Below, piece by piece: positions 33,333 to 58,149 of a stretch of 64,000 nucleotides of DNA. The stretch's first letter is position 1. The number at the start of each line of letters is the position of its first letter. The notes under the pieces were generated by a model. The model ran no database searches and had not been told where the DNA came from. It was given only the letters and a program-made list of their open reading frames with translations. The position numbers and the translations under genes were made by a program. Source of the stretch: an uncultured candidate division Zixibacteria bacterium (GTDB lineage Bacteria; Zixibacteria; MSB-5A5; GN15; FEB-12); NCBI GenBank assembly GCA_963806185.1, contig CAWDXE010000001.1, forward strand, positions 160,001 through 224,000. Direction: 5' to 3'.

Positions 33333-33950
33333 TTAATATACGTCAGGTATCGGCGTTCTCAAGCAAAAATCGTAAGAAAAATATCGCAGCAACGTAAAAT
33401 CCTGTGTCAGTTCGTTGTGGAACGAAACGGCCAATACGTTGCCCGCTTGCACCGCCACGACTTCATTGCGATAGGTGCCTAATACCTCGACGCCCTTTCC
33501 CACGTGGGCAATCTTGGGAGCCCGGATAAATTCCGCTGGTACGGAATATTTCTGATTATTCAATGTAATGGTCAATTCATCTTCAAACGAGAATATCTGT
33601 CGTCCCCAGCCGTTGCGAATGACATCTATATCAATACAGTCCAATGGTTTAACATTCGCTTGGTTATTGACGATGTTTTTTGCCAGAAGGATCATCCCCG
33701 CGCACGTACCGTAGACCGGTTTTGTCCGACAGAACTTCGTCAACGGCTCACGAAGCCCAAACCGATCAATCAACTTGTCCATCGTAGTGGACTCGCCACC
33801 CGGCAGAACCAGCGCATCGACTTGAAGCAGGTCGGACGGGAGTTTGACCAGACGGCAGTCGACCTGTAGTTCGGTGAGTTGCCTGACATGTTGTTCGAAA
33901 TCCCCTTGAAGTGCCAGGACACCGACTCGGGGGGTAACCTGAGATTTCAT
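33333..33950 (-). CDS. pdxT: PLP synthase glutaminase subunit
   Basis: GVLALQG, PGGESTT, GTCAG, FIRAP and SFHNEL. Confidence 0.95.
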   Translation of the reverse strand: MKSQVTPRVGVLALQGDFEQHVRQLTELQVDCRLVKLPSDLLQVDALVLPGGESTTMDKLIDRFGLREPLTKFCRTKPVYGTCAGMILLAKNIVNNQANVKPLDCIDIDVIRNGWGRQIFSFEDELTITLNNQKYSVPAEFIRAPKIAHVGKGVEVLGTYRNEVVAVQAGNVLAVSFHNELTQDFTLLRYFSYDFCLRTPIPDVY

Positions 33951-34051
33951 ACCCGCTTAAACACTTATGGTCCGCTTTATGTGCCGGAGAATATAGGGAA
34001 TTGGTGGGCTGGGGGAAATGCCATATATCGGCAGCTATTTCAATTTGCCAT

Positions 34052-34345
34052 CGTCAATCTGAGCCCCATTAGATTGTCATTCTGGGCCGAAGGCCCAGAA
34101 TCCATGGGGTCGCTTCTCGTCTGCGCTCGAAGCGGCGGTCTGCGCGTGGTCATTCAATGGTTGGCGTACGTCCCGTGCGCCAACCAACCTGCACTCCCCC
34201 CTCTGTCATTCCGGGCCCCCGGCCCGGAACCCATGGGTCGCGACCAGCTCTCAGCTAACACCCACATCACCCGCAAAGCGTCGCCCTGAGCGGAGCCGAA
34301 GGGCGACCGTCTTACGGGGGCCTCAAATGCCGTTCGCCCGTACGC
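34052..34345. repeat. REP-like hairpin mosaic A
   Basis: TGTCATTCTGGGCCGAAGGCCCAGAATC (34075), TGGCGTACGTCCCGTGCGCCA (34162), TGTCATTCCGGGCC..GGCCCGGAAC (34204) and GTCGCCCTGAGCGGAGCCGAAGGG (about 34280). All recur elsewhere in the window. Confidence 0.85.
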
Positions 34346-34436
34346 CGCAGGAACGGCCCCAGATACGCATTGACATTTTCCGATTATGGACTATGTTGTT
34401 GACAGAAACGTTCTCTGCCTGAAACTGGAATTGACA

Positions 34437-35960
34437 GTGAGACTGCTTCTTCTCGTAATTCGATCGGCCGTAATCACGACTCTTCTTTATCTTTCAGCAA
34501 TTGCACAAACCTCCAACCCCGCTGATTGGACTACACGCTCATACAACGCCCAGCACATCGGGTACAATCCGGCCGTCACCGTTTCCTTCCCTCTCTCACT
34601 CCAGTGGAAGAAACAAATGCCGCAGGACGGCTGGGTAGCGTATCAGACCTCGACTATCGGAGACATCGTGCTCCTGTCGTCCTCCTTCTGGAACTGGCGA
34701 GATGGCACATATCGCGCTGGACAGGTGCTCTGTTGTAATGCCCTCACCGGCGATACCATCTGGAATCGCTGGTTTCTAGGCCTATATTACTTCAATCAGC
34801 CGACAGTCGCTGGCGATACAATATTCGTGCGTTGCGAACTATATGAGTCAATGTGGGCTTATGTCGAGGCACTCACGCTGGATAGCTGCCAGTCTATATG
34901 GGCGAGCGGATGGAACTCGCAGGGCAATGGTTTCCTTCCCCCAATCGTCTATGACGGATCTGTTTCAGCGTCTGGCGGCTACTACGGCGGCTTACACTGC
35001 TGGAATCGCTTTACGGGGCAGTCGCAGTGGTGGCAGGGGACGTTACAATACGATTGGTGGACTCCATCTGCCTACCTAGATCGAGTTTACACCTACATAC
35101 AAAACAGTCTGCTGATCAGGGACCGGGCTACGGGGGTGTTACTGGGCGCGATCGGCGCCCCTAACCCCGGACAGCCGCCATATTGGTCGATGTACGCCGC
35201 GCCAATCATCGACACGACTACCATGCGCGCCTACGTGGCGAACGAGAATTGGCTATGCGCGGTGAGCTTAGTTGACAGTACGCTGTACTGGCAGCGAGAG
35301 GGTCAATACGGACGCATCGGGGATAACTTGTCGGGGGGTATCACGCCGGCACTCGCTTACGGCTATATCTACACGGTAGACTCGGATAATCTAGTAGTAC
35401 TCGATACAGCTGACGGGTCGACTGCGTGGCAGTTTGATAAGCGAAGTGCATCCGAACCGCTCAACTATTCCCCTATTGTGGCCGACCATTACGTCTTCGT
35501 TGCTTCTGACTCCGCCACCTATGCCTTGGACGTCAATACGCACGAGATGGTTTGGTCCGCGCCCATCGGCGGGGAATTGAGCATTGGCCGCCATGGCCTA
35601 TATATCTCGAGCAACACTGGCTGGTACGCCGCCTACGGCGGCATCACCACCGACGTCGCCGACCAACCCGACGATATCCTCCCCTCTGACCTAACCCTCA
35701 CCAACTATCCCAACCCCTTCAACGCCTCCACCGTCATCAACTACTCTCTCCCGACTGCAGGCCGTGTCCAAATCGATATCTTCAACTCCCTCGGCCAGAG
35801 AGTCCGGCGCCTTCTCAATTCCGATGAATCCACAGGCGATCACTCAATCACTTGGAATGGACAGGACGCGCAGGGCAACGACCTTGCCTCCGGAAGTTAT
35901 CTCTGTCGGGTGAAAACCGCTGATGCGACAGCCACGCGAAAGCTCCTCCTCCTTCGCTGA
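34437..35960 (+). CDS. Secreted PQQ-like beta-propeller protein with FlgD-Ig/T9SS-type C-terminal domain
   Basis: Trp-rich propeller repeats (ALTGDTIW, DTADGSTAWQF) and LTNYPNPFNASTVINYSLP...RKLLLLR. Start uncertain (34386 or GTG 34437). Confidence 0.82.
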   Translation: MRLLLLVIRSAVITTLLYLSAIAQTSNPADWTTRSYNAQHIGYNPAVTVSFPLSLQWKKQMPQDGWVAYQTSTIGDIVLLSSSFWNWRDGTYRAGQVLCCNALTGDTIWNRWFLGLYYFNQPTVAGDTIFVRCELYESMWAYVEALTLDSCQSIWASGWNSQGNGFLPPIVYDGSVSASGGYYGGLHCWNRFTGQSQWWQGTLQYDWWTPSAYLDRVYTYIQNSLLIRDRATGVLLGAIGAPNPGQPPYWSMYAAPIIDTTTMRAYVANENWLCAVSLVDSTLYWQREGQYGRIGDNLSGGITPALAYGYIYTVDSDNLVVLDTADGSTAWQFDKRSASEPLNYSPIVADHYVFVASDSATYALDVNTHEMVWSAPIGGELSIGRHGLYISSNTGWYAAYGGITTDVADQPDDILPSDLTLTNYPNPFNASTVINYSLPTAGRVQIDIFNSLGQRVRRLLNSDESTGDHSITWNGQDAQGNDLASGSYLCRVKTADATATRKLLLLR

Positions 35961-36008
35961 CATACCCGCTCGTGCCCCCCTGCCTCTTCACCCCTCCCCG
36001 AATTACCA

Positions 36009-37067
36009 TCACTCCACCCAACACGGAAAATCTGTTACCTCAGACACCGTACCGTCAGTCAAGTTGATCTCTGACCGCAGGCATTTGTTTGCCTTTTCAT
36101 CTATCGTGCCCCACAGTTCCATCGTCAGATCGCCTTGGTAGGAAAGGCGCAGACCCCGGTTGACGTCAAACCCCAGCAACGGTGACGCACTCTCTACTGC
36201 TTTGATCACCTGGTCACGTGAGATGATGTGATCTACCGACCGAAGTTCTGGCACTGCGAAGTCACGGTACGCCAGGAGCTCTGGCGGCAACGCTGCGTTG
36301 AACGTCTCGAATGACTTTTCGTACGCCGACGTGTCCATCACGTCGCATAGCCGGTGTACGCCGTCGGAAATGAGCAACTCATTCATGAGTTCAATTCTCG
36401 CCCAATCGACGTGATAGTAGAAGTTGACTATAAAGTACTCGCAATGAAAGCTGTCTCGATCTAGTTCGCGAGTATAGGCGCTGAGAACCCTGACATGAGA
36501 GTCGAAATACTCCTCCGTCATGCCGTTCCTTGCCATGAGCAGTGCTCTCCACAAGGGAAGATAGGTCTTCGGTGCGTCGACCGAGAATACCGGGATCTCA
36601 TAGTCCCCGAATGGCACCAGAAAGAATGCCTTGGCAAGATTTGGCAATGAATCGTTCCCCCAGTAGACCGCCGGGGTCGTCTTGGCCATATGCGCCTGCG
36701 CGAACAACCCGCCGGTCATCGGTGATACGCACACTTCGTACGCAAACGTCGGATACCCCATCGACACCACCATCTTCGCCCCTCTCCCTTGCAGACAGAC
36801 CGGCTCGATTGTGCGGAATGGATGTTTCCCCACGTCCGTGCTGTCGCCCGTGCATAGCAGAGCTGCCAGAGTAGGGTCCTTCTCGAGTAGCTTGTCGAAC
36901 GTGGTGGTTATCTTCGATGGGATCGCAACCACCCCCGAGCTGTCACCGCGCTGATACTTGAAATTGCGCTTCGGACCTTCCCTGCCCTCTGCCTTCCCTT
37001 CCCCCTGGGCCATGACAACGCCAGCCAGCGACGTCGTCACCAGTACGATTCGAATGAGTGTATTCAT
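36009..37067 (-). CDS. Orphan secreted hypothetical protein
   Basis: Long ORF with signal peptide MNTLIRIVLVTTSLAGVVMA-Q. Confidence 0.72.
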   Translation of the reverse strand: MNTLIRIVLVTTSLAGVVMAQGEGKAEGREGPKRNFKYQRGDSSGVVAIPSKITTTFDKLLEKDPTLAALLCTGDSTDVGKHPFRTIEPVCLQGRGAKMVVSMGYPTFAYEVCVSPMTGGLFAQAHMAKTTPAVYWGNDSLPNLAKAFFLVPFGDYEIPVFSVDAPKTYLPLWRALLMARNGMTEEYFDSHVRVLSAYTRELDRDSFHCEYFIVNFYYHVDWARIELMNELLISDGVHRLCDVMDTSAYEKSFETFNAALPPELLAYRDFAVPELRSVDHIISRDQVIKAVESASPLLGFDVNRGLRLSYQGDLTMELWGTIDEKANKCLRSEINLTDGTVSEVTDFPCWVE

Positions 37068-37255
37068 AGGCTCCAAACCTGATGCTCGCCGGACATACTC
37101 ACGACACCCGCCACGGATTGCAGCAGGCTGCGAGTGATTCGGCTACACAACGATAATGGCGATTGTGCTCGAGTACAATGGAGTTCGAGTACAATAATAT
37201 GACGTGAAACGTCCCGTCCCGGTGTAATTGAAAGACGAACCCGGTCGCCGCGGAT

Positions 37256-37605
37256 TGTCATCCTGAGCCCGCTAGATTGTCATTCTGGGCCGAAGGCCCA
37301 GAATCTCGTCGTCCACTGAATCTCCCCCTCTGTCATTCCGGGCCGAAGGCCCGGAATCCATGGGGTCGCTTCTCGTCTGCGCTCGAAGCGGCGGTCTGCG
37401 CGTGGTCATTGTCAGATGAGGCGAATTGGGGAGGTCGTGGTGGACGGCGCGGGATTTGAGGTTGCTTCGTCCCCTTCGGCTCCGCTCAGGGTCCTCGCAA
37501 TGAGTAGAACTCGTGCGGTGTCAGGCACGGGGGCCTGACACCACGTATTCACCCACATCGCTCGCAAATCCCCCCCCGCGCAGCGTCGCCCTGAGCGGCG
37601 TTGAA
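37256..37605. repeat. REP-like hairpin mosaic B
   Basis: Two TGTCATTCYGGGCCGAAGGCCCRGAATC copies (37278, 37331), the nested element 37453-37506, GTGTCAGGCACGGGGGCCTGACAC (about 37518) and a truncated GTCGCCCTGAGCGG. Confidence 0.85.
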
Positions 37606-37628
37606 CCTCGATCGCTAGACGATCGCCC

Positions 37629-38258
37629 CTAACTCCCCAAGAGGAGCCTTCGCTTGTGCTTTACGTGGAATCTCACGTGCTTGGTCTCTCGCGCAATCTC
37701 ATTCCCGCTCGCTCTGTTCAGGAGTCGTGCAAAGAGCTCCACTGATAGTAACGAATCGGTACAAGCTTCTGGCAGTTTGAATGCGTTTCGGGTGATGTAT
37801 CCGCCGGGAACTAGTCTCTTGTGGAAGTAATAGAGGTCGTCGTCATGTATGGGTCTTATGGCCTCTGCTCTTCCCCGTGTATAAGACTCGCGCCGCAATC
37901 GCCTTTCGTATCCGCCCAACTTCTGAGTCCGATACAGATGGCGCTATCCATGCAATGCCCCAGGACGCAGAGGCTGTCTATAACCAGATGGGCAGGGTAT
38001 CAAGTGAGTTGGTATCGACCGCTTCGCCCAGGAAGGCCGGGTTGAAGTCAATTTCGTACGAGGCGACGCGAGTCCCTTAATGTCGAGTTGATACGTGCCG
38101 AACAGAACAACTGGCCGTTCTGACGCTTCCGGGCTGAAGTCTCGCCAAGTCATAGATCTGCAACCTGCACAAAGTGCGATAGTAACAACTGCAGATACGA
38201 CAACCATCGCAGCAACAAGAGAGTGTTGCCGCATCATGAAATTGGATTGTTTCTTCAT
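37629..38258 (-). CDS. Probable orphan lipoprotein split by several indels (or a pseudogene)
   Basis: RBS GAGGT and lipobox LCAG-C. Plausible protein sequence continues through several frames to the stop at 37629. Confidence 0.5.
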
Positions 38259-38319
38259 CTACCTCTTAGTATACGTTCCTTTGGTCTTCTTTCCTAGTTT
38301 TTTCGCTGTTTGTCCAGAG

Positions 38320-38925
38320 TACTTTGACATTGCTCAGGGTGACGATTTCGAGGGTGGTGGACACTGAGGTCCTGAACCTTTAAGAAAAGGTTCAGGATGA
38401 CGAGGTGAAAGGAAGCGCGCCTCGCAATGGCCAGAATTCGTGCGGTGTCAGGCACGGGGGCCTGACACCACGTATTTGCGCTTACTTCGTCCTTCGACTG
38501 CGCTCAGGACGACGATTTCGAGGGCGGTGGAGTGATGCGGGGATGGTCGATCTGTGAGTGACGCGAGGTTTGAGATTGCCACGGCGCGAAGCGCTCCTCG
38601 CAATGGCGAGATCGAGAGTGCGGTGGACGAGGAGATCCTGAATCATAAGAATGCTTCAGGATGACGAGGAGTTGGAAGCGCGACTCGCAGTGACAGGAGG
38701 GGGAGAGAAGCGCGCCTTGCAATGGCGGGAAGGGGATTGTTCATATGTCCAGGCAAATGAGTCCTTACTACGCGCCCTTCGACTCCGCTCAGGACGACGA
38801 TGCCGAGGACGGCGGTGTGGAGCGGGGATGGTCGATCTGTGAGTGACGTGAGACTTGAGATTGCCACGGCTCGTAGCGAGCCTCGCAATGACGGGGAGGG
38901 AGAGAAGGGCCCTCGCGATGAGTTT
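38320..38925. repeat. REP-like hairpin mosaic C, containing two copies of a composite unit of about 120 bp
   Basis: Units at 38491-38605 and 38776-38892, CCTGAA..TTCAGGATGAC hairpins (about 38366 and 38632) and a 39-bp copy at 38438-38476. Confidence 0.88.
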
Positions 38926-38945
38926 CAACGAGAATCGCGCGAGGA

Positions 38946-39326
38946 TCAATCGGGGATGAGGAGAAAATTGACGTTGCCGACATTGGCATTGCGCGTCGGC
39001 GACGAAATTGTTCGCACCTGCGATTTGTAGCCGTGCTTGCGACAAGTCAAGTAGTACGGGCCGATTCCCTCGGTGTCAAAACGGAATTTCCCTTTGCTGT
39101 CGGTGTAGAGGAGCGGGAGGCGAAACGTGTCGAGCGGATATTTCAGGAAGTAGTCGATCTGCGCCGAGTCGATGGCGTATCCGTGCACGGAATCAGTGAC
39201 AGTTCCTGACCAGATCACGCCCCATGAGGGGTCAGCCTCGTGGTCGCAGCCTGCAAAGGAATGCACAAGGAGAGCGATCGCGAGAAGCATAACGAGCCGC
39301 ACAATGTGATATTTATTTTGGCGCAT
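38946..39326 (-). CDS. Orphan lipoprotein with a carboxypeptidase-regulatory-like domain
   Basis: Lipobox FAG-C; SGTVTDS...TDSKGKF...RKHGYKS...VNFLL. Confidence 0.78.
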   Translation of the reverse strand: MRQNKYHIVRLVMLLAIALLVHSFAGCDHEADPSWGVIWSGTVTDSVHGYAIDSAQIDYFLKYPLDTFRLPLLYTDSKGKFRFDTEGIGPYYLTCRKHGYKSQVRTISSPTRNANVGNVNFLLIPD

Positions 39327-39624
39327 GGGGTAGTGTCCTTCGTGAATGCACAATAATGAGTCGAGGGCGCACGGTCAAGTGGGGAGATGAAGGAGCGGGG
39401 TTGTCATGTATTTGTTGGTGCAAGGTGTATGTCAAGATTTTCAGAGTGTATGTCAAACATCACACGAGGGTGGCAACACGGAAAGCGTCGATACCTGCCT
39501 GTCGAAAAACGACAGAGCACAACGCGAGTAGCTTCATAGTGAAAAAAAACGGGCGCGGGCGAAGCGGCAGCGGCTCAGTTTCTGGGTGATGATGCAGGCG
39601 GGTCCATGGGAAATGCTCCTCAAG

Positions 39625-40110
39625 ATACCCCACCGCAAGACGGTGGGGTACGGAATGGTTGTTGGACAGTGTGTCCTCTATATAAGGGCCCCGATCCGCA
39701 TACTGTAGCGATTTGGTAGTGCAAGGGAATGCAGTGGTGGTGCACGAGATATTTCACAGCCATGGCAAGCCCCTACTGCTCGCCCTTCGACTGCGCTCAG
39801 GACGACGTTCCGAAGCCGATGGAGTGGTACGGGGATGGTCGATCTGTGAGTGACGTGAGATTTGAGATTGCCACGGCGCGAAACGCGCCTCGCAATGACG
39901 AGATCGAGTATGCGGTGGACGACGAGATTCTGGGCCTTCGGCCCAGAATGACAATTGAGGGGACCCGGAATGACAATTGTCGTTTGTTATCTGCATTAGG
40001 GGAATCTCAAGAGCCCAAGCCCGGTCCAATTGACGAGGCTTGGGCCCTTGAAATCTGCCATCATCCCCCCTTCTTCCCTCTCCCTCCGGAAGAGGGCCAG
40101 GGTGAGGGCC
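39625..40110. repeat. REP-like hairpin mosaic D
   Basis: TACCCCACCG..CGGTGGGGTA (about 39626), third composite unit 39784-39899, an inverted family-1 hairpin 39926-39953 and CCCTCTCCCTCCGGAAGAGGG (about 40076). Confidence 0.85.
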
Positions 40111-40129
40111 GCCAGGGCACCTCTTTCAC

Positions 40130-40162
40130 AAAAAAAGCCGCCAGGCGTTTCCACCTGACGGT
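40130..40162 (-). terminator. Intrinsic terminator after pdxS
   Basis: Minus strand ACCGTCAGG-TGGAAACG-CCTGGCGGC followed by T7. Confidence 0.75.
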
Positions 40163-40187
40163 ATGATAAATCTCTACTCTTCGCGCT

Positions 40188-41081
40188 CTACCGCGTCTGC
40201 AACTGATGCTCCGTCGGAATCGACTCCGCCGCGATCCCCTTCATCGGCTCACCCAGTCCGTGCGAATGCTCGGCAATGATCGCGTAATCCTGCCAGTGCG
40301 TCGTCGCAGCGACAATCGCCTTCGCCCGCTTCTCCGGATTGCTCGACTTGAAAATACCGCACCCCACAAAGACCGCCTCGGCGCCCAGATGCATGCACAG
40401 CGAGGCATCGGCCGGCGTCGCCACACCACCCGCCGCAAAATTCGGCACCGGCAGCTTGCCGGTCTTGGCGACTATCTGCACCAGCTCGAGCGGGACGCGA
40501 TGTTCCTTCGCGCATCCGTACAGCTCTTCCGTTGCGTCATGACCGTTAACGAACGCATCACCGACGTGATCTCGCGAAGATGCTTCACCGCCTGCGAAAC
40601 GTCACCCGTGCCGGCCTCGCCCTTGGTGCGAATCATCGCCGCGCCTTCGCTGATGCGACGCAGTGCCTCGCCCAGATTGCGGCAGCCGCAGACGAACGGC
40701 ACCTTGAATTCCCACTTGTCGACATGGTACTTGTTGTCGGCCGGCGTGAGTACTTCGGATTCGTCGATGAAATCGATTTCCATCGATTCCAGCACACGCG
40801 CCTCGACAATATGCCCGATACGGCACTTGGCCATCACCGGGATGGTAACTGTTCGCTTGATCTTCTCGATGACATCCAGGTCGGCCATCCGGGCGACGCC
40901 CCCTTCGGCGCGAATGTCCGATGGTACTCGTTCGAGCGCCATGACGCTGGCGGCCCCCGCCTGCTCGGCGATCTTCGCCTGCTCGGCGTTGGTGACGTCC
41001 ATGATGACGCCTCCCTTGAGCATCTCGGCCAAGTCCGATTTTTACCCGGTGCCTTTTATCTTCGAATTTTGTCGTCCACAT
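40188..41081 (-). CDS. pdxS: PLP synthase lyase subunit; frameshifts near 41032 and 40530
   Basis: [43 protein letters not shown] and [22 protein letters not shown]. Confidence 0.95.
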
Positions 41082-43275: not shown

Positions 43276-44022
43276 ATGTTACGCATCCGCTCAACAAACG
43301 GGTACTCGCTTATCGAACTCATCGTCGTAATCGTCATTGTCGGCATCCTGGCCGGCGTGACGATGCGCTCGCTTAGATCAGCAAATGATACGTCGCGCAC
43401 CGAAGAGACAAAGGCCGAACTGAACCGGCTCGCCGAGGCGATCGTCGGCACGCCCGATCAATCAGTCGGCGGCGTGCGCACCAGCTATGGGTATATCGGC
43501 GACAACGGTTCATTGCCGCCCAATCTAAGTGCACTCCTCACCAACCCCGGCTACAGCACGTGGAACGGTCCGTACATTCACGACCAGCTTTCCATTGGGG
43601 GAAACGACGAATTCACGCGTGACGCCTGGGGTGTCGCGTACGTCTACAACACCGCCACGGCCACGATCACGTCCACCGGCGGCGGCACGTCAATCTCCCG
43701 CAAGCTTGCGGCGAACCCCACCGATCTCACCATCAATCGGGTCACCGCGACGGTTGTTGATCTGAAAAAACACTGCCCCGGCGCAACCTACCGAGACTCC
43801 GTCAAATTTGTCCTGTCAGTACCAAATGGCAGCGGATCACTGGTCAACCGAATCAAGTACCCGTCGAATGATGGATACGTTCAATTCGATTCCATTCCGA
43901 TCGGCCTGCATGAATTGCGCACCATCTACCTCCCGACCGGCGACACGTTGACCCGCCGAGTCAACGTCGAACCGGGAACCGGCTACCACGCCGAAATCAC
44001 GCTTCCTCGGCAGGTATGGTGA
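43276..44022 (+). CDS. Prepilin-type (GspG-like) protein, paralog 1
   Basis: G|YSLIELIVVIVI class III signal; GYIGD, WNGPYI and DAWG. Confidence 0.88.
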   Translation: MLRIRSTNGYSLIELIVVIVIVGILAGVTMRSLRSANDTSRTEETKAELNRLAEAIVGTPDQSVGGVRTSYGYIGDNGSLPPNLSALLTNPGYSTWNGPYIHDQLSIGGNDEFTRDAWGVAYVYNTATATITSTGGGTSISRKLAANPTDLTINRVTATVVDLKKHCPGATYRDSVKFVLSVPNGSGSLVNRIKYPSNDGYVQFDSIPIGLHELRTIYLPTGDTLTRRVNVEPGTGYHAEITLPRQVW

Positions 44023-44023
44023 T

Positions 44024-45250
44024 ATGAACAAGTTGCGCACAGCCGCCGGATTCGGACTCATCGAGATCACCATGTTGATCGTTGTGACCGGCATTATCGC
44101 CGGCATCGCCATGCAGTCGATGACGGTGGCGGTGAATGATATCCGTCGCGCCAAGACGGAACGTGAAATGGAATCGCTCTCTCACGCGATCGTCGGCGAT
44201 CCTTCGGTATTGCAGGACGGTCAGCGCGCCGATTTCGGCTATGTCGGCGACGTCGGCGCCTTTCCCGCCAGTCTCAACGCGCTCTACACCAATCCGGGCG
44301 GCCTTCCAACATGGGACGGTCCGTATGTTGACGTTCCGTTTTCTCAGGACACGATTTCCTATCGCCTCGACGAATGGGGTACCGCGTACGCCTTCACAGG
44401 CGGGCTGACCATAACATCATCGGGCGGCGGAAGCACGATCACCAAGAAGATCGCCGACGCATCCTCAGACTACCTCTACAACAAGCTGCAGGGTCAGATC
44501 ACCGACAAGAATGATTCCGTGCCGGGGCCCGTTTACAAGGATTCCATTCGCGTCGTGCTTACCTACCCAAGGGGTGCATCGGGCATTGTCAACACGACCG
44601 TCACGCCCAATGCCTCGGGTGAATTCACTGTCGATTCGCTCCCGGCGGGACGCCGCCTCGTGCGCGTTGTCTACACGCCGACCAATGATACGACTAAACG
44701 GTACGTGGCCATTCAACCGCGCCATCAGAACACCCCGCCGTTAAAAGTCGTATTGCCGGTGATGCTCTACTCCTCCTCCGGAACCACTCAGATTCTCCGT
44801 CCCAATGCCCCGGGGTACGTCGATGACTTGAACAACAGTGGGTGTGGAACCGACTGGCAGTGTGTCGATGACGTCAGTGCCGACGAGAATGTCTCGTACG
44901 TCTGGACTAACGATAACAACTGGAATGATGAAACCTATCAACTCACCAACGCCGTGGGCGGCACCGGCATCATCGACAGCATCGTTGTCTCGATCCGCGT
45001 GGTCGCTGCCGGCAGCGGGAATAACCGGATTGCGCGGACAATCATCCGCACCGACGGTCACTCGTATGACGGATCAAACATCGATCTCGATCCGGTCACG
45101 TCATACACGACGTTCTCGACCACGTACGCGACCAATCCGAGTACCGGCTCGGCCTGGACCTGGACGCAGATGGATGGTCTGGAGGCCGGCGTCGTGCTCA
45201 AAAAAGACAGTCGCTGCACGCAAGTCTATATAACGGTTTATTCGCATTGA
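44024..45250 (+). CDS. Prepilin-type protein, paralog 2, with an extra C-terminal domain
   Basis: G|FGLIEITML; GYVGD, WDGPYV and DEWG; roughly 160-aa extension. Confidence 0.88.
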   Translation: MNKLRTAAGFGLIEITMLIVVTGIIAGIAMQSMTVAVNDIRRAKTEREMESLSHAIVGDPSVLQDGQRADFGYVGDVGAFPASLNALYTNPGGLPTWDGPYVDVPFSQDTISYRLDEWGTAYAFTGGLTITSSGGGSTITKKIADASSDYLYNKLQGQITDKNDSVPGPVYKDSIRVVLTYPRGASGIVNTTVTPNASGEFTVDSLPAGRRLVRVVYTPTNDTTKRYVAIQPRHQNTPPLKVVLPVMLYSSSGTTQILRPNAPGYVDDLNNSGCGTDWQCVDDVSADENVSYVWTNDNNWNDETYQLTNAVGGTGIIDSIVVSIRVVAAGSGNNRIARTIIRTDGHSYDGSNIDLDPVTSYTTFSTTYATNPSTGSAWTWTQMDGLEAGVVLKKDSRCTQVYITVYSH

Positions 45251-45260
45251 GGACGCTTGA

Positions 45261-46403
45261 ATGCATCGCCGCATGAACAGACAGCAGGGCTTCACTCTCG
45301 TCGAACTCGTGGTGGCCATCATGATCGCCGCCGTTCTGACGGCTGTGCTTATGCGCTCGGCCGGGCAGGTTTCCGACGCGGCCAATTTCAGTCAGACCGA
45401 AGCGGAACTCGACGCTCTGGCGATCGCCGTGGCGGGCAATCCGTCGCTCGAGAACGGCGGTATGCGGAGCGACTTCGGCTACGTGGGCGATATCGGCGCA
45501 CTCCCGGCCAGTCTGGATAATCTCGTTTCCAATCCGGGCGGGTATGCAACCTGGAAGGGTCCGTACATCTCCAACCGGTTCACGCAAGCCACTGATGATT
45601 ACAGGACCGACTCCTGGGGCGCGGCCTACACCTGGCAGCCCGATTCGGCGCGGATCATTTCTAATGGTTCGGGCAGTCCTCTGACCCGTCAGATTGAGGC
45701 GTCAAAGAGCGACTTGCTTATGAATCAATTCCGCGGCACTGTTCTCGACGCCGACAGAACCGCGCCCGGTCCGATATACAGAGATTCAGTGACCGTTCGC
45801 CTCACGGTGCCCAACGGTACCGGCGGCACCGTCACGAAGACAAGAACACCCGACCTCGGCGGCTCGTTTGTGTTTGATTCACTGCCGATCGGCAACCACT
45901 CCCTTCAAGTCATTTACAAACCGACCGCCGACACCATGACGCGGACTGTTGCAATCGAGCCGGGCACGTCCGAGTATGCCGAGTACAATTTCCACGCCGA
46001 CTACTGGCGGCAATCGTCGGGCGAGGGTCTGGCTATGGTGCCCGAATCGGACACACTCTATACCAGCTGTACCAAGCTCCGTTTCTACATCCGCAACTCC
46101 ACCGGCCGGTCCATCAGCGTATCATCGATACAGCTCTACTATCCCGGCACAACGGCGTATTGGACCGACGCCTTCTGGAACGGCACGCAAGTGGTGAATC
46201 TCGGCACCGGGATCGCCGGCGGCAGCTCCGCTACATTCTCTTCGGCGCAGGCGATTGGCGACGGTCAGAAAGTAAAAATCGAAATTGAACGATTTCGCAC
46301 CGGCCCCAGTTCCGGCGGCTGGGTGGACATAAGCGATGTCGCATTTACGGTTCTATTCTCCGACGGTTCCCGCATACGCTTCACGGGGGATGTATGTCCG
46401 TAA
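45261..46403 (+). CDS. Prepilin-type protein, paralog 3, with a different extra C-terminal domain
   Basis: G|FTLVELVVAI; GYVGD, WKGPYI and DSWG; roughly 130-aa extension. Confidence 0.88.
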   Translation: MHRRMNRQQGFTLVELVVAIMIAAVLTAVLMRSAGQVSDAANFSQTEAELDALAIAVAGNPSLENGGMRSDFGYVGDIGALPASLDNLVSNPGGYATWKGPYISNRFTQATDDYRTDSWGAAYTWQPDSARIISNGSGSPLTRQIEASKSDLLMNQFRGTVLDADRTAPGPIYRDSVTVRLTVPNGTGGTVTKTRTPDLGGSFVFDSLPIGNHSLQVIYKPTADTMTRTVAIEPGTSEYAEYNFHADYWRQSSGEGLAMVPESDTLYTSCTKLRFYIRNSTGRSISVSSIQLYYPGTTAYWTDAFWNGTQVVNLGTGIAGGSSATFSSAQAIGDGQKVKIEIERFRTGPSSGGWVDISDVAFTVLFSDGSRIRFTGDVCP

Positions 46404-47128
46404 AGATCAAGAGTGAACGCGCTTTCACGCTGATCGAGCTGGTTACGATCATTGTCGTGATCGGCATCATTGCGGCAGTCGCGACGCGTAAGATGTCAGC
46501 CACGCTCGACACCGCACGCTACGAGGCGACTAAGACCGAGCTTGATAATCTCGCGATGGCGGTGGTTGGCGACCCCGACTCGTACGGCGAGGGTGCGCGG
46601 GCGGTCTTTGGGTATGTCGGCGACGTGGGCGGTTTGCCGCCGAATCTCGATGCTCTGGCGACCAATCCGGGCGGGTACACGACCTGGCACGGCCCGTATA
46701 TCGACAAAGGGAACGGTTCCGACTTCAAGAAGGACGCGTGGGGCACAACCTATTCGTATGCCGGCACGACGATCTCGTCGACCGGGTCGGGGAGCAGTAT
46801 TGACAAGGTGTTTGCATCGGCATCGTCAAAACTTCTTCAGAACACGCTGCAGGGATCTGTTATTGATGCGAACGGAAGTTTACCTGGCTCGGTCTACAAA
46901 GATTCGCTTAGGATCAATCTCATCTATCCCAACGGTTCGGGTGGCACGACGACCGCCACGGTGTATCCGAATGTAAAGGGTGAGTTCTCGATTGCCAATC
47001 TGCCGATGGGGAATCGGCAGATGCAGATGATTTACTTACCGAAGACGGACACGATTACGATTCCGGTGACGATCTATCCCGGCCGCACGGCGACGATTGC
47101 CGCGATCTGGCCGGCGGATTTGTGGTGA
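46394..47128 (+). CDS. Prepilin-type protein, paralog 4
   Basis: A|FTLIELVTII; GYVGD, WHGPYI and DAWG. Confidence 0.88.
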   Translation: MSVKIKSERAFTLIELVTIIVVIGIIAAVATRKMSATLDTARYEATKTELDNLAMAVVGDPDSYGEGARAVFGYVGDVGGLPPNLDALATNPGGYTTWHGPYIDKGNGSDFKKDAWGTTYSYAGTTISSTGSGSSIDKVFASASSKLLQNTLQGSVIDANGSLPGSVYKDSLRINLIYPNGSGGTTTATVYPNVKGEFSIANLPMGNRQMQMIYLPKTDTITIPVTIYPGRTATIAAIWPADLW

Positions 47129-47805: not shown

Positions 47806-47815
47806 GCGATGCTGC

Positions 47816-52626: not shown

Positions 52627-53373
52627 CTATTCCCCCATTCGGAACTCCACCGAGTAGGTCACCCAGACCGGAATCGCAAGACCGTTTTGAATACCGGGCG
52701 AATAGACATTCAGATACGCTGCCGTCACGGCGGCCGAATCCAGTGCTTCGCACCCCGACGACGACACAATGTGCGCCTCCCCTACTTTTCCGCTGGCCAA
52801 CACGAGCGCGCCAATGGTCGCTTTTCCCTCGAGACCAAGCCGTTTGGCCAGTGATGGGTATTCCGGCTTCACTTCGACTACCATCGCCGGTTCCTTCTCA
52901 ACCTTCTGCCAAACGCCATATTCGGGCAGATCATCACCGATCGACGCCCCATGCAGCGGGGTAAGTCCGAAATCGCCGGTATCGCTGGTGCCGGTCCCCG
53001 TGCTGTCGAGGCCCACTCCCCGACCGGTCGCAATGACTCGGTCGTCAACGACCATCGTATCAGGGACGGGTGTGGGAATGCCGACGCGCTCATCCCGGGG
53101 CAGGGCCGGTCTGGCGCCCACACCATCGGAAACTACGTTTACTACCTGAAGTGGATCGATGACGACGCGCACTGAGTCAATGTCGTCCGGGAGAACCCTC
53201 GGTGGAATTATGACAATATCCGGGTTCCCCGCGAGTATCGAGACACTCACATAAGTCGCCGCAATGGCCAAGATCACGAGTATATTGGCGATCAGCATAT
53301 TGCGCTGATAGGTCATCTTCAGCTCGATCGCCCCGTACGGTCGATAGCGGAAATCATCCCTGCTGGGAATCAT
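52627..53373 (-). CDS. TonB-family energy transducer
   Basis: YGAIELK, a TM helix, PEYPSLAKRLGLEG, LDSAAV and WVTYSVEF. Confidence 0.85.
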   Translation of the reverse strand: MIPSRDDFRYRPYGAIELKMTYQRNMLIANILVILAIAATYVSVSILAGNPDIVIIPPRVLPDDIDSVRVVIDPLQVVNVVSDGVGARPALPRDERVGIPTPVPDTMVVDDRVIATGRGVGLDSTGTGTSDTGDFGLTPLHGASIGDDLPEYGVWQKVEKEPAMVVEVKPEYPSLAKRLGLEGKATIGALVLASGKVGEAHIVSSSGCEALDSAAVTAAYLNVYSPGIQNGLAIPVWVTYSVEFRMGE

Positions 53374-53517
53374 ACTCCACCCCTTGCGGCTCAGCCGCGT
53401 GTTTAAATCCCTGACCGGTCCGTGGTGACGGGCCGATTCACCAATGGCAATGAAGGATGAGGTGAGGACTCTACTAAATCTACATTAATGACGGCGGTCT
53501 CTTCCCGTCCGTCCAAA

Positions 53518-53548
53518 GAAAAGGCGGCGGAGACTCATCGTCGCCGCC
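53518..53548 (-). terminator. Candidate terminator after the large beta-helix gene
   Basis: GGCGGCG...CGCCGCC stem with TTTT on the minus strand. Confidence 0.55.
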
Positions 53549-53578
53549 ACCTGGTTAGTCAAGGTGCTGCTGTGCGGG

Positions 53579-56500
53579 CTACTTGATCATGAGCATCTTG
53601 TTGGTTCGCTCATCACCGCCCGCTGTCAGGCGATAGAAATAGACGCCCGTCGCGACACTCTCGCCCCGGTCATCGCGGCCGTTCCATTCAATCCGGTGGC
53701 TGCCGGCGGAAAGATCACCGTCCACCAATTGGCGGACTTCTTGTCCGAGCATGTTGTACACGACCAGCGAGGTACGTGCCGGCGCGGGCAGGCTGAACTT
53801 GATCACCGTGCTCGGATTGCACGGATTGGGGTAGTTCTGATCAAGCGCAAACTTCAGCCCGCCATCGGGCTTTGAAACGACGGTCGGAGCAGCCGACAAC
53901 GCCCCCATGTCGGCGCGTGAGCCGTCGGGATCATTGTAGATGCTGTTCGGATCTCCGGCGTCGATACAGGGCGAACCCGACTGCAACAGAAAATCAGGAA
54001 TGGAGTAAACCGCCCCCGGCTCGATCACCGAGGCCAACATCGGGTCGGCCGATATCTCACCGATTCCGGGCTCCAGCAGGACGTAATCCTTCCCGTTGTT
54101 GTTCCAGACGTCGTTATACTCGTGCACAAGATTGACCGGCGCGCCGCAGTAGTCGTTGCGAATCAGTCCGCCGGCGAGGTTGTTCATGATGATGTTATTG
54201 CGCACGTCGACATTCTGGCTGTACACGATGGTCACGCCGCCGTCGTTGGTAACGATTGTGTTGTTGAGGATACGGCAATTGTCGGCTCGAATCGTCACGG
54301 CCCCCCACCCTTCAGTGTGGGGTGGGTCGACGTGATTGTCGTAAATCAGATTTCGCTCGATGATGGCACCTTCGCCCTCGATCGCGCAGATACCGCCGGC
54401 GTTGCCGCCGACATTTCCGTAAATCTGATTGCCGACGAAGCGCGGCGCATATCCGTACCCCAGTCGAATAAAGATACCGCCACCGGAAATGGGCGTGCGA
54501 TTGAAGCGGATGATGTTGTTCTCAACCAAAGGCTCACAGAACTGGAACCAGAGGCCGCCGCCATCATACGATCCGACGCAATGCTCGATGATGCAGTTGC
54601 GAACTGTCGGATCGGACTCCGTGCAGTGAATGCCCTCGTTATTGTCCTGCCCGTCCAGCGTGAAGCCTTCAATGAGAGTGGATTTGTCGCTGCCGGCGAC
54701 CAGGACGATGAGTGCGCCGGGCTTGCAGTCCCTGGGCATTTCTGCCGGCGTTGTCGCCTGATGGTCGTCAAACTCACCGGACTGCCCTGGCTTCTTCAAT
54801 GCCGCCGGCGGGATAATTCGTGTCGCTTCAGGGCCATCAGTGGATTTCAGGACCAGCGACTTACTCATGAACTGGAGTTGTTCGGCGTATTCACCCGGAC
54901 CGACCAGGATGGTATCCTGACAGCCGGCCGCGTCGATAGCCGCCTGGATAGTTGCGAATTCGGCCGGCACCCGGATGGTGCGAGAATCGTTCGGTACGGC
55001 CGGATCATACGGGATGGCGCCGATATCGTTTCGGGAACCATCGGGATCGTTATACACCGGATCCGGATCGCCGGCGTCGATGCAAGGAGATTCAGGTAAC
55101 AGCGTGGAACCGCAGCGGTTGAACAACGGATCCACCGACAGGTCGGTCACTCCGGGTGGGATATTGAGGTAGTCACTCCCGTTATACCAGACGTCATTGT
55201 ACGCCAGCGTCGCCGTTGACGGTCCGACGTAATCATTCGCGATGATGCCGCCGTTGGTGTTGAACACAATGAGGTTGTTTCTCACCTCGGCGTCGCTCGC
55301 GGCCGCCAGCGTGATACCAGCGCGATGGCCGGTGATCGTGTTGTTAATGACAGAACAGTCATCGGCGCGAATGAACACCGCCCCTTCCGCTTCTGTAACC
55401 AAAGAACCAATGCTATTGCGGTAAAACAGGTTTCGCTCAATGCGGGCGCCGCGCCCTTCGATGGCACAGATACCGCCGCTGTTGCCCGCCGAGTTACTGT
55501 AAATTGTGTTACCGATGAATTTGGCCGTGCCGCCGCCTTCACCCAGCCGGATGAAGATGCCGCCGCCGGAAACTCCCGTTTCGTTGTACCGAATGATATT
55601 GTTTTCAACCAGCGGGCGACATTCCTGCAGCCAAAAGCCACCGCCGTCCCAATTGGCGTGACCGTTTTCAACGATGCAATTGCGGATCACCGGATCTGAC
55701 TGTATGCATGAAACACCATTGGTTCTCGTCATACCGTCAATGGTGAAGCCGTCTATCAGAGTCGCCTGAGTGCTTCCGGGAAAGAAATGGATCACGCCGC
55801 CGTCATAGATCGGATACGCTTCTGAAGGGAAGCTCAGAACAGTTTGCTTCGCCCCCTCAGTCGACTTCAGGACGAGACTCTTGCCGTCGAACTCAAGGCA
55901 CTCCTCATAATCCCCCGGCCCGACCAGGATGGTATCGAAGTCCACGGCCTGCGCCAGCGCCTGGCTGATGGTCGCGAATTGCCCCGGCACATAGAAGGTC
56001 GCGGGCTGGCGCGGCTCCACCGGGAAATAGGTCAGGGCGCCGATATCGTTGCGGGACTCGTCGGGATCATTGTAAACAGGATCGGGGTCGCCGGAGTTGA
56101 TACAAGGCGATTCGGCGGACAGATAGACCGTGCCGGACACAAAGCCCGGGATCTTCCAGACATCGGTGGCGCCGGGTGCAATGTTTTCGTAGTTGGTCGT
56201 GCCGTTCAACCAAACCAGGTTATACCCGAGCGTGACCGTGCTCGGACCGGCGTAATTGTTGACCCAAATGCCCCGAGTATTCCACGCGACGATATTGTTC
56301 AAGATGAGCGCGTTATCACTCGCAATAACCGTTATTCCGGCATAGTTTCTGACGATGGTATTGTTAATCAGGGAGCAGTCGGCGGCACGAATACTCACCG
56401 CACCCACACCCTCAGTATAGGTTGGCGACACGGTGTTGTTCTTGATGATGTTCCTGGCAATGTACGCACCGCGGCCTTCGATGGCACAAATACCGCCGGC

Positions 56501-57088
56501 ATTTCCCGCCACGTTGCCGTAAATGGTGTTGCCGACTATTTTCGCTGCGCCTTCGGTGGTGTCCAGACGGATAAAAATCCCTCCGCCGGAGACCCACGTC
56601 CGATTGTGTCGAATGATATTGTTTTCGATTGTCGGACGGCAGTGCTGCAACCAGAAGCCGCCACCGTCGTAGGAGCCCAGACCGTTCTGCACGATACAAT
56701 TCCTGATCTGCGGATCTGATTCCGTACAAGAAACACCGTTGCACCGGCTCATGGCGTCAATGGTGAAACCTTCGACGATTGTGGTCGCATCGCTGCCAGG
56801 CTCGAAGTAGATCACGCCGTCATTTTCGTCGACCAATCGTCCGGTCGGATACTGGATAATCGTCGCCTCCGGACCATCAGTCGATTTTAGCACCAGGCTC
56901 TTCCCTCCGAAATGAACCACCTCGGCATAGGTCCCGGGTCTGACCAGAACAGTGTCGCCTCCTGCGGATGCTACAACGCCTTCCTGGATGGTGCTGAAGT
57001 CATCCGGAACCACAAGTGTTGCCCCCCATGCCGACGTGGCCAGGCATACTACAGCCAGGGCAACGATCAGTTGATGCTGTGCGCGCAT
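53579..57088 (-). CDS. Secreted protein with three tandem right-handed beta-helix modules and a FlgD-Ig/T9SS-type C-terminal domain
   Basis: Each module begins VP..F.TI and ends SPCI..GDP..YNDPD.SR.D.GA. C-terminus LDQNYPNPCNPST...NKMLMIK. Confidence 0.9.
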   Translation of the reverse strand: MRAQHQLIVALAVVCLATSAWGATLVVPDDFSTIQEGVVASAGGDTVLVRPGTYAEVVHFGGKSLVLKSTDGPEATIIQYPTGRLVDENDGVIYFEPGSDATTIVEGFTIDAMSRCNGVSCTESDPQIRNCIVQNGLGSYDGGGFWLQHCRPTIENNIIRHNRTWVSGGGIFIRLDTTEGAAKIVGNTIYGNVAGNAGGICAIEGRGAYIARNIIKNNTVSPTYTEGVGAVSIRAADCSLINNTIVRNYAGITVIASDNALILNNIVAWNTRGIWVNNYAGPSTVTLGYNLVWLNGTTNYENIAPGATDVWKIPGFVSGTVYLSAESPCINSGDPDPVYNDPDESRNDIGALTYFPVEPRQPATFYVPGQFATISQALAQAVDFDTILVGPGDYEECLEFDGKSLVLKSTEGAKQTVLSFPSEAYPIYDGGVIHFFPGSTQATLIDGFTIDGMTRTNGVSCIQSDPVIRNCIVENGHANWDGGGFWLQECRPLVENNIIRYNETGVSGGGIFIRLGEGGGTAKFIGNTIYSNSAGNSGGICAIEGRGARIERNLFYRNSIGSLVTEAEGAVFIRADDCSVINNTITGHRAGITLAAASDAEVRNNLIVFNTNGGIIANDYVGPSTATLAYNDVWYNGSDYLNIPPGVTDLSVDPLFNRCGSTLLPESPCIDAGDPDPVYNDPDGSRNDIGAIPYDPAVPNDSRTIRVPAEFATIQAAIDAAGCQDTILVGPGEYAEQLQFMSKSLVLKSTDGPEATRIIPPAALKKPGQSGEFDDHQATTPAEMPRDCKPGALIVLVAGSDKSTLIEGFTLDGQDNNEGIHCTESDPTVRNCIIEHCVGSYDGGGLWFQFCEPLVENNIIRFNRTPISGGGIFIRLGYGYAPRFVGNQIYGNVGGNAGGICAIEGEGAIIERNLIYDNHVDPPHTEGWGAVTIRADNCRILNNTIVTNDGGVTIVYSQNVDVRNNIIMNNLAGGLIRNDYCGAPVNLVHEYNDVWNNNGKDYVLLEPGIGEISADPMLASVIEPGAVYSIPDFLLQSGSPCIDAGDPNSIYNDPDGSRADMGALSAAPTVVSKPDGGLKFALDQNYPNPCNPSTVIKFSLPAPARTSLVVYNMLGQEVRQLVDGDLSAGSHRIEWNGRDDRGESVATGVYFYRLTAGGDERTNKMLMIK

Positions 57089-57258
57089 AGTTTCCTCCCG
57101 TGGGATATTCCCATACCCACGTTCCGATTACTTTGGTACTTATGTGTTCGCGAGCGGAGGCTCGCCTGCTGTTCCGTGCAGACTTGCGGATCGCAGATTA
57201 ACTAGATTATGGATACTGAATGTCGATCTACTTGTCAATGCAAAAGTAGGGCGGACAC

Positions 57259-57287
57259 AAAAAAGCCGCGCCATTTACTGACGCGGC
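57259..57287 (-). terminator. Intrinsic terminator after pstS
   Basis: GCCGCG..CGCGGC stem followed by T6 on the minus strand. Confidence 0.7.
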
Positions 57288-57309
57288 CAGCATAGGAAAC
57301 GAAAATGGT

Positions 57310-58149
57310 TCACTTTACCGGGAAGTAACCGACCTCGGTGACAATTTTCTGCCCCTCGTCGGAGAGCACGAAGTCAACCAACGATTTCATGTCCCCTTTC
57401 GGCTTATTGCGTACATACCAGAAAAGGAAGCGCGACAGCGGATAGTCGCCCGACCGGACAGTTTCCAGCGTCGGTTCGAACCCGGGCGTGGCGGCATCTT
57501 TCTTCAGCTTGGCATACTTCACACCCTTGGCGTAGGCGGCCCCGCCATAACCGATGCCGTGCTTGTCTTTGGCGACAGCGTTGACGATGGCTGCCGTACC
57601 CGGCAGTGTCTGAACCTGAGCGGCAAAGTCCTCTCCTTTAAGGACGACGTCCTTGAAGTAGCCGTAGGTGCCGGAACTGTTCTCGCGTCCGTAGACGATG
57701 ATGCGGGCGTCGGGTCCGCCGACATCCTTCCAGTTCGTAAGTTCACCGGTATAGATCAGTTTGAGTTGATCAATCGTCAATTCGTGAACCGGATTTTCGT
57801 CGTTGAGATAGACCGCCAGACCATCGCGGGCGACCGGAATCTCGACGCCGGGCGTATTGAAGCGCTGCTTCAATTTGTCGATCTCACTCGCCTTGATCGG
57901 GCGAGAGGCTTCGCAAATGTCGGTCGTACCGTTGATCAGGGCGGCCAGACCCACACCCGACCCGCCGCCGGTGACCTGAATCACTGCGCCCGGGTGAGCT
58001 TTCATGAAGGCTTCGGCCCAGCGCTGTCCGAGCGGAAGCAGGGTGTCTGAACCCTTTACCGTGATTCCCTGTCCGGCAAAGAGGCCGCCGGCGATGCCGA
58101 GGCAGGACGCCACGACGGCCATGGTGATGATGTTCTTTAGTGCTTTCAT
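57310..58149 (-). CDS. pstS: Phosphate ABC transporter substrate-binding protein
   Basis: VKGSDT, GGGSGVG, ASRPIK, RENSSGT and YPLSR. Confidence 0.94.
   Translation of the reverse strand: MKALKNIITMAVVASCLGIAGGLFAGQGITVKGSDTLLPLGQRWAEAFMKAHPGAVIQVTGGGSGVGLAALINGTTDICEASRPIKASEIDKLKQRFNTPGVEIPVARDGLAVYLNDENPVHELTIDQLKLIYTGELTNWKDVGGPDARIIVYGRENSSGTYGYFKDVVLKGEDFAAQVQTLPGTAAIVNAVAKDKHGIGYGGAAYAKGVKYAKLKKDAATPGFEPTLETVRSGDYPLSRFLFWYVRNKPKGDMKSLVDFVLSDEGQKIVTEVGYFPVK

Follow-up and report, generated by a model that had tools for sequence, protein, structure and literature searches.

The window, i.e. the whole stretch of 64,000 nucleotides that was analysed, contains pdxT (positions 33333..33950, minus strand; PF01174 SNO, E 2e-51) and pdxS (40188..41032, minus strand; PF01680, E 1e-91), which are the left and right core genes of an interval of 6.2 kb. 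Four cargo genes in mixed orientation are located between them. A PQQ-type beta-propeller of 524 aa with a FlgD/T9SS-type C-terminal domain (34386..35960; PF13360, PF13860, TIGR04183) is encoded on the plus strand. The other three genes lie on the minus strand and comprise a gene for a 355-aa protein with a hydrophobic N-terminus and without a family match (36009..37076), a lipoprotein-like gene in pieces, also without a family match (37629..38258), and a small lipoprotein-like gene with a CarboxypepD_reg-like fold match below the cut-off (38946..39326). The second of these had been described from the sequence alone as one lipoprotein gene. It does harbor a lipobox-like cysteine, but it is not a single ORF and requires approximately three frame changes. 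As pdxS is split by a frameshift, and clpB and groEL are seemingly split too, the breaks in all four genes are likely indels of the assembly. No integrase or transposase was found among the called ORFs of 33951-40187, and a plus-strand scan of this interval for the near-symmetric attC motif RYYYAAC...GTTRRRY located no such pair, which agrees with the sequence-only reading. An Rfam search gave two matches, both below the gathering score.

The cargo genes are accompanied by four spacers that share common modules in shuffled order. Spacer 1 (34050..34309, plus strand) contains SRM-type hairpins at 34076, 34205 and 34280 and a RAYT-type REP at 34162, whose family was also found flanking a RAYT gene on contig C5 (58.5k). 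Within spacer 2 (37254..37614) the hairpin orientation switches from plus to minus. Spacers 3 (38319..38925) and 4 (39400..39977) are on the minus strand, and the latter includes a RAYT-type REP at 39626. Three repeat pairs are distributed over these spacers. R1 (34075-34154 and 37331-37410, in spacers 1 and 2) spans 80 bp with 2 mismatches, and its left copy, on the plus strand, begins at a hairpin tag (TGTC). R2 (37493-37549 and 38420-38476, in spacers 2 and 3) spans 57 bp with 4 mismatches, the final 39 bp being identical, and the copies of R3 (38776-38892 and 39784-39899, in spacers 3 and 4) are 87% identical. The coordinates and lengths given earlier, the two mismatches of R1 and the identical end of R2 were reproduced.

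It had also been claimed that each cargo unit is bracketed by a repeat of its own. The pairs are real, but R1 flanks two convergent genes instead of a single unit, and R3 is present in three copies (38487-38640, 38760-38893 and 39768-39932). The first two (also delimited as 38488-38608 and 38773-38893) are arranged in tandem without a gene between them, and the third, which is the right copy of the pair, matches 38487-38640 best (154 bp, 89%), not its earlier-named partner. R2 also occurs outside the locus: the segment 37453-37551 corresponds to C5:15435-15531 (99 bp, 90%) with 127 bits, compared with 86 for the local pair, and an R2-similar composite adjoins a GIY-YIG gene at C1:760.7k. Inverted copies occur between the spacers as well (37254-37340 and 39891-39977, 88 bp, 83%; 34073-34102 and the R1-inverted hairpin 39926-39955 of spacer 4, 30 bp, 100%). 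The earlier observation was thus confirmed in part.

Hairpin mosaics and candidate enzymes in the genome

Genome-wide, 418 hairpins were located in 163 clusters. They comprise Ssn-type motifs and RAYT-type REPs of about ten families, nine of which gave at most three matches in shuffled sequence. These numbers apply after removal of 77 of 240 clusters that consisted of a single loose A-family match, as shuffles yielded 36-39 such matches. The published SRM pattern has 47 exact matches in the genome, 23 of them inside hairpin clusters; at the locus there are none, and five with up to two substitutions. The hairpin tags are mostly on the C-rich strand.

The sequence-only reading had postulated a catalyst acting in trans, and candidates are present near the same hairpins. 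Six small GIY-YIG genes (PF01541) were found in the genome, none of them in the locus, and five are adjoined by these hairpins. For the encoded proteins NCBIfam returned no family above the cut-off; they presumably resemble CDD cd10448. There are also six Y1/RAYT genes (PF01797), and hairpin families flank RAYTs. Both RAYTs examined (2/2) pass NF047646, and the REPs flanking RAYT genes match those of the locus at 34162 and 39626. GIY-YIG and RAYT genes themselves lie within direct repeats, at C1:760.7k and C1:835.8k, in relative G068 and at L130. A search of the 82%-complete genome for an IS110 transposase (PF02371), also named as a candidate, gave no match. Two PF00589 genes, candidates for an IntI integrase, are far from the locus on C4 and C7.

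The best match of a cluster was local in 27 of 124 cases, against 2.04 expected (13-fold), and non-local in the remaining 97. All of the excess lies at distances below 8 kb, where 27 such matches were observed and 2.1 expected; between 8 and 120 kb there is none (14 observed, 11.3 expected). Strong linkage was found in 8/48 cluster pairs within 2 kb, compared with 159/10855 across contigs. Among matches of at least 60 bp, local ones were direct in 21 cases and inverted in one, and non-local ones were evenly divided (46/46); with each pair counted once, the local share of direct matches is 16/17, which is only modestly above the same-strand background of 32/46. In 19 of the 163 clusters internal direct repeats of at least 50 bp occur at a spacing of 69-511 bp with no gene between them. 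A polarity of the shared flanks, with the 3' side longer than the 5' side, was significant, but it depended on the chosen pattern ends and on conserved tails and was given no weight.

Genes are bracketed elsewhere in the genome, too. A dnaJ-like gene (PF00226 and PF01556) lies between two 143-bp repeat copies of 88% identity. This gene is a resident in syntenic position: in 29 loci of relatives it is preceded by hsp20 in 6, followed by clpB in 13, and both apply in 4. Around an aldehyde dehydrogenase gene, the bracketing copies (122 bp) are inverted relative to each other. Most long direct brackets around single genes enclose orphan-like secreted genes (C1:141955, C4:131204 with PEP-CTERM, C5:63537 and the genes of the locus), and the gene at C1:141955 is absent from 107 relatives. 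The predicted enrichment of the repeats beside exported genes was not borne out. With exported proteins called by a crude signal-peptide rule, genes flanked on both sides did not differ significantly from the genome (11/34 vs 599/2701, p=0.15) or from isolated genes (94/336, p=0.56), and their enrichment in low GC3 was not significant either.

Cargo content and the probable origin of the brackets

In 48 of 76 relative genomes pdxS and pdxT are linked; the other 28, with contig ends or unlinked genes, were excluded from the gap counts. The gap measures 106-4412 bp in these relatives. It is nearly empty (about 110-550 bp) in 11 of them and filled in 37, with DUF5131 in 28, RAYT in three and GIY-YIG in one; genes for SocA and DUF3800 occur in it as well. 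Across the family, the space between pdxS and pdxT is thus a hotspot of insertion. As had been proposed, the cargo is patchily distributed and does not belong to the slot, where it is carried by none of the 48 relatives. Homologs of the PQQ gene are present in 15/159 relatives, all at other loci, and partial homologs of the 355-aa protein in 2/159. The lipoprotein-like gene 38946..39326 has one paralog (31%) at C7:229.6k, which lacks these hairpins. A metagenome scan yielded six loci of 53-65% identity, with no close strain among them.

The repeats of the locus are pieces of intergenic Ssn/RAYT hairpin mosaics that were probably duplicated over short range (below about 8 kb) within a gene hotspot. 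Tandem duplication of a mosaic would leave a copy on each side of whichever gene lies between. In the single-stranded DNA of replication forks the hairpins may be nicked by Ssn-like GIY-YIG nucleases and RAYTs, and such nicks could prime local copying on the same strand; SsnA is described to cut ssDNA immediately upstream of the cognate hairpin (PMC11893778). Genes would enter mainly when the core genes on either side, or the mosaics, recombine, in the style of minimal mobile elements, and repeats once present would be likely to facilitate the loss or exchange of genes, a role that has been proposed for the Neisseria NIME arrays.

The sequence-only reading had instead regarded each pair as the scar of a circle, with gene-plus-repeat units integrating successively at the mosaics as integrase-free cassettes and RAYT- or Ssn-like catalysis in trans. 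We regard this as possible but doubtful. The excess of local direct best matches and the absence of the cargo from the slot in 48/48 relatives are in its favor, as are three relatives in which direct repeats bracket a gene of this slot. Two of these (G078 and G118) carry, independently, a non-enzyme gene inside a REP direct repeat of 103-131 bp; the third is G068. Integration would also give these brackets, the orphan-like bracketed genes and the enzyme genes in direct repeats. Furthermore, TnpA-REP is reported to cleave and rejoin REPs (PMC6006769), and Bentley 2007 (PMC1797815) proposed that genes flanked by arrays can insert into arrays. However, the resident dnaJ-like gene is bracketed likewise, and tandem copies without a gene as well as inverted copies occur. 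No bracketing repeat was found in 32 of the 37 filled gaps, and within 1.5-kb flanks none of the 15 loci with PQQ homologs has a long bracket, one showing a 24-bp pair. Relative G119 possesses a hairpin-bounded gene that is missing from G004 of the same genus, but its boundaries do not form a direct repeat. The cargo genes point in both directions, no IS110 transposase was located in the 82%-complete genome, and for SsnA cutting alone is demonstrated (PMC11893778). The earlier interpretation is thus supported in part, for the foreign cargo and the candidate enzymes, and not for the scars.

The pairs could also be chance neighbours out of an abundant pool of repeats, which is very improbable for the locus as a whole. 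Hairpins are abundant, the best match of R2 is on another contig, and most best matches in the genome are non-local; nevertheless, chance pairing of R1 and R3 is refuted by the occurrence of full-length R1 just twice in 3.65 Mb, by the local best-match excess and by the linkage counts. R2 alone may be such a pair. Hardly credible is an artefact of the assembly, even though it is likely to contain indel errors, as the differences between the copies (2-15%) follow a pattern that includes paired stem changes in R1, the order pdxS-pdxT-lipA is that of the relatives, and similar brackets occur in other genomes.

GC skew and the strand of the hairpins

The GC skew of this Zixibacteria-related genome is saw-toothed, with seven sharp upward steps (C1:213k, C1:866k, C4:185k, C5:47k, C6:155k, C7:391k and C7:867k), none of them at dnaA (C1:993k), and seven smaller downward steps. 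Hairpin orientation tracks this skew. The pdxT-pdxS locus lies 16 kb from the nearest upward step (52726..57544 of the window, C1:212.7-217.5k), where the mean skew at 4-fold degenerate sites is -0.22 on the left and +0.20 on the right. Three of five Ssn-like genes are within 3.4 kb of an upward step; the other four steps showed no remnant GIY-YIG gene. The step regions have no common sequence besides the hairpins, and clusters of three perfect DnaA boxes were found nowhere in the genome. That inversions produced the steps is made less likely by conserved gene order across C1:865.7k in 13/21 loci of relatives and across the weak step at C3:72k, and by a gene-strand bias that stays the same on both sides of C1:865k, C6:155k and C7:391k. 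The skew of C7 also declines linearly (R2 0.88; RSS 0.049 vs 0.114 for one step), whereas over C1:540-860k a single step gives the better fit (0.022 vs 0.030 for a line).

The saw-toothed strand bias of the hairpins would fit several replication origins. A wider proposal, which we consider unlikely, is that at least seven fixed non-oriC replication sites exist with an Ssn/REP system tied to them. Ssn-like genes and inward-facing hairpins would be found at these sites, which nicking might create; hairpins would spread along one replication strand to either side, and the same single-strand copying would build direct repeats that capture and swap surface genes in hotspots like pdxS-pdxT. In cyanobacteria with multiple, DnaA-independent origins the skew is described as irregular (PMC7198777), whereas the steps here are sharp. 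In the literature covered (few subscription papers), no such skew pattern is described for Zixibacteria, nor is repeat-bracketed cargo like that seen here.

Relation to known systems and meaning

The analogy to Neisseria drawn by the sequence-only reading is apt, since hairpins alternate with reused spacer modules. NIME arrays of dRS3 and RS elements are likewise intergenic, have varied spacers and lie beside variable surface genes; they are dynamic, and a trans-acting recombinase and the insertion of array-flanked genes were already hypothesised for them (PMC1797815). In contrast, the mosaics described here mix some ten hairpin families, belonging to two types of enzyme, the flanked genes are not significantly enriched in exported proteins, and orientation tracks a multi-step skew. 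The Ssn/SRM/NTS system (Chenal et al. 2025, PMC11893778) likewise combines small single-domain GIY-YIG genes with GTCA-tagged hairpins, but the hairpins of our locus show no exact match to its pattern and belong to several divergent families; strand bias and local duplication do not appear in the sections of PMC11893778 that the analysis covered. GTAG/GTGG-tagged hairpins flank RAYT genes in REP/BIME/REPIN systems, too, and reiteration of REP clusters in tandem together with flanking DNA has been described (PMC6006769, PMC3733652), whereas the REPs here are interleaved with SRM-type hairpins. If the G-rich strand is the leading strand, the tags would be opposite to the lagging-template rule of IS200/IS605.

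Integrons have IntI, the attC core and a single cassette orientation. The locus shares with them an array of unrelated genes with folded repeats between, but no integrase was found among its ORFs and no attC core in the plus-strand scan, its genes are of mixed orientation, its spacers extend over 300-900 bp, and resident genes are bracketed in this genome as well. In minimal mobile elements, alternative gene sets occupy the space between conserved genes and a mobility gene is unnecessary. The pdxS-pdxT slot resembles these elements, which are cited in PMC1797815, in that different short sets of genes fill it across species; recombination in the flanks is only proposed here.

Viewed as a cassette system, our locus is less special than first proposed. 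Our results extend NIME-like mosaics to Zixibacteria and provide a genome-wide measure of their spread, which is in tandem, on the same strand and below 8 kb, and which bears on the in vivo role of Ssn nucleases and RAYTs. The skew result would be weightier, if true, as several sharp skew steps resembling origins would then exist away from dnaA on a bacterial chromosome. These steps offer a way to ask whether the replication strand sorts Ssn sites.

Repeats in the pdxT-pdxS interval

pdxT (33333-33950) and the split pdxS (40188-41032) lie 6.2 kb apart. Between them are a PQQ-propeller gene whose tail is of the FlgD/T9SS type, an orphan gene encoding 355 aa, a fragmented lipoprotein-like gene and a further, small gene that is also lipoprotein-like. 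All three direct-repeat pairs proposed by the sequence-only reading were recovered: R1 (34075-34154 and 37331-37410), R2 (37493-37549 and 38420-38476) and R3 (38776-38892 and 39784-39899). The proposal that each cargo unit has a private pair was not borne out. R3 is present in three copies, two of them in tandem without an intervening gene, and the left copy of R2 matches a sequence on contig C5 better, and over a greater length, than it matches its local partner. Spacers 2 (37254-37614) and 4 (39400-39977) share 88 bp in inverted orientation, and common modules are patched together in these and in spacers 1 (34050-34309) and 3 (38319-38925). R1 and R2 fold better than shuffled sequences (z -3.1 and -3.8), whereas the whole of R3 does not (z about -1.1). 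As a whole, the observation is partly confirmed. The integron features looked for at the locus, attC-like sites on the strand scanned and a uniform cassette orientation, were not found.

Frameshifts occur in pdxS, in the cargo gene at 37629-38258 and in clpB (contig C3) and groEL (C5); these are likely long-read assembly indels. Four tandem genes whose N-termini read as pilin-like (248, 408, 380 and 244 aa) lie at 43276-47128, and an extensive hairpin mosaic comes next, at about 47150-47810.

Hairpin families, enzyme genes and GC skew

Ten hairpin patterns gave 495 matches in the 3.65-Mb genome versus 45 and 40 in two shuffles. This background came nearly entirely from one loose pattern. Filtering left 418 hairpins in 163 clusters. 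Of six small GIY-YIG genes, five have GTCA-tagged families next to them, while GTAG/GTGG-type families adjoin six Y1 genes; both Y1 proteins tested passed the RAYT model. Candidate trans-acting enzyme genes of these two kinds are present; no IS110 transposase was found in the 82%-complete genome. The pairing of GTCA-tagged hairpins with GIY-YIG genes matches the Ssn/SRM system (PMC11893778), although the locus hairpins fit the SRM pattern given there only with up to two substitutions. The pairing with Y1 genes likewise matches REP/RAYT (PMC6006769, PMC3733652).

One RAYT gene (G000:C1:835779-836934, L041) is embedded in REP units of 69 bp repeated in tandem, four per side and all in the same orientation. 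An 85-aa GIY-YIG gene (G000:C5:189656-190050, L034) immediately follows tRNA-Met and has no SRM hairpins; after it, part of the 3' half of the tRNA is repeated. At G000:C1:491175-492744 (L089) a 165-bp direct repeat (100%) from the tRNA-Asn 3' end contains a RAYT-type REP and encloses 1.2 kb, likely an island remnant.

The GC skew of the genome forms a saw-tooth at four-fold degenerate sites in genes of both strands, with seven strong upward steps, smaller downward steps and a linear fall over 465 kb on C7. None of the seven lies at dnaA; the nearest is 128 kb from dnaA-dnaN-recF at C1:993k (dnaN and recF assigned by sequence appearance). Gene orientation favours the G-rich strand only slightly (772 versus 643). 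Under the eukaryotic N-domain model, upward steps can be taken as origins; that reading also uses the usual convention that the G-rich strand is leading (PMC7111523). The steps may instead stem from misjoins or old rearrangements. Among sparsely sampled relatives, G012 has two replichores, G078 and G068 show weak skew of mostly one sign, G097 rises close to its dnaA but changes sign elsewhere too, and in G022 the single rise and dnaA are about 350 kb apart; the saw-tooth is therefore strongest in the window's genome and not family-wide. A search of mostly open-access literature found no account of such a pattern in Zixibacteria.

Hairpin tags lie mostly on the C-rich strand in families A (51/59), B (43/54), C (16/21), D (37/46), E (34/39) and I (14/14), but not in J (8/18). 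Up to 25 kb from steps there are 10.7-13.8 clusters per 100 kb, versus 2.8 beyond 100 kb. For three of five hairpin-flanked, Ssn-like GIY-YIG genes the distance to a step is 0.4, 1.0 and 3.4 kb, and for the other two it exceeds 100 kb (binomial, at a distance chosen post hoc, 2e-5 versus random places and 1.5e-3 versus cluster places). One of the three is inside an operon; 13 of 21 relative loci keep the operon's order but lack this gene. Between the pdxT-pdxS locus and the C1:213k step (window about 52.7-57.5 kb) there are 15.6 kb, and the orientation of its hairpins flips in spacer 2.

Bracketing and gene gain at the slot

Hairpin clusters occur genome-wide, but bracketing is more than chance: 124 clusters have another cluster less than 8 kb away, and for 27 of them the best match lies at that distance, versus 2.04 expected. 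Of these matches 26 are direct; they represent 17 distinct pairs (16 direct), and the excess ends at 8 kb. A bracket does not necessarily mean integration, since a 143-bp repeat (88%) surrounds a resident dnaJ-like gene that lies between hsp20 and clpB (among 29 relative loci hsp20 precedes it in 6, clpB follows in 13 and both hold in 4), an inverted copy of 122 bp brackets an aldehyde dehydrogenase gene, and 19 of the 163 clusters contain internal direct repeats. Genes flanked by clusters on both sides showed no significant enrichment in predicted exported proteins (11 of 34 versus 599 of 2701, by home-made gene calls and a home-made signal rule).

In 48 of 76 family members, all from other genera, pdxS and pdxT are linked, with gaps of 106-4412 bp, 11 near-empty and 37 filled. 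The window's cargo is in none of these 48 slots; they hold DUF5131 (28), RAYT (3), GIY-YIG (1), SocA, DUF3800 and others. Across the relatives' gaps (L044-L055, L064-L082, L155-L194) DUF5131 looks repeatedly gained or lost within genera; in six of them it has a 375-aa partner upstream (GMT-wHTH match below cut-off). Genes thus enter the slot whether or not repeats are present: only 5 of 37 filled gaps have a direct repeat of at least 25 bp spanning at least 300 bp (at least 50 bp in three: G068, around RAYT, G078 and G118), the one extra gene of G119 relative to same-genus G004 is bounded by hairpins that form no direct repeat, and homologs of the window's cargo, patchy among relatives (PQQ gene 15/159, 355-aa gene 2/159), lie at unrelated loci without long brackets.

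Integration of gene-plus-repeat units at the hairpins, close to a hypothesis made earlier for NIME arrays (PMC1797815), is unlikely as the general explanation and may account for some units. Most of the long single-gene direct brackets hold orphan-like secreted genes, a point that counts against local copying. The sequence-only interpretation is partly supported. Paralogous secreted genes beside hairpin mosaics in neighbouring spacers (G000:C5:56179-58203, C4:128032-131800) suggest local gene duplication too. The best-supported reading, and probably the correct one, is nick-primed, short-range, same-strand duplication of mosaics within a hotspot: a nick at a hairpin, made by a putative hairpin-associated catalyst, would prime copying of the mosaic over a short range on the same strand, and this duplication would occur inside a slot where genes come and go.
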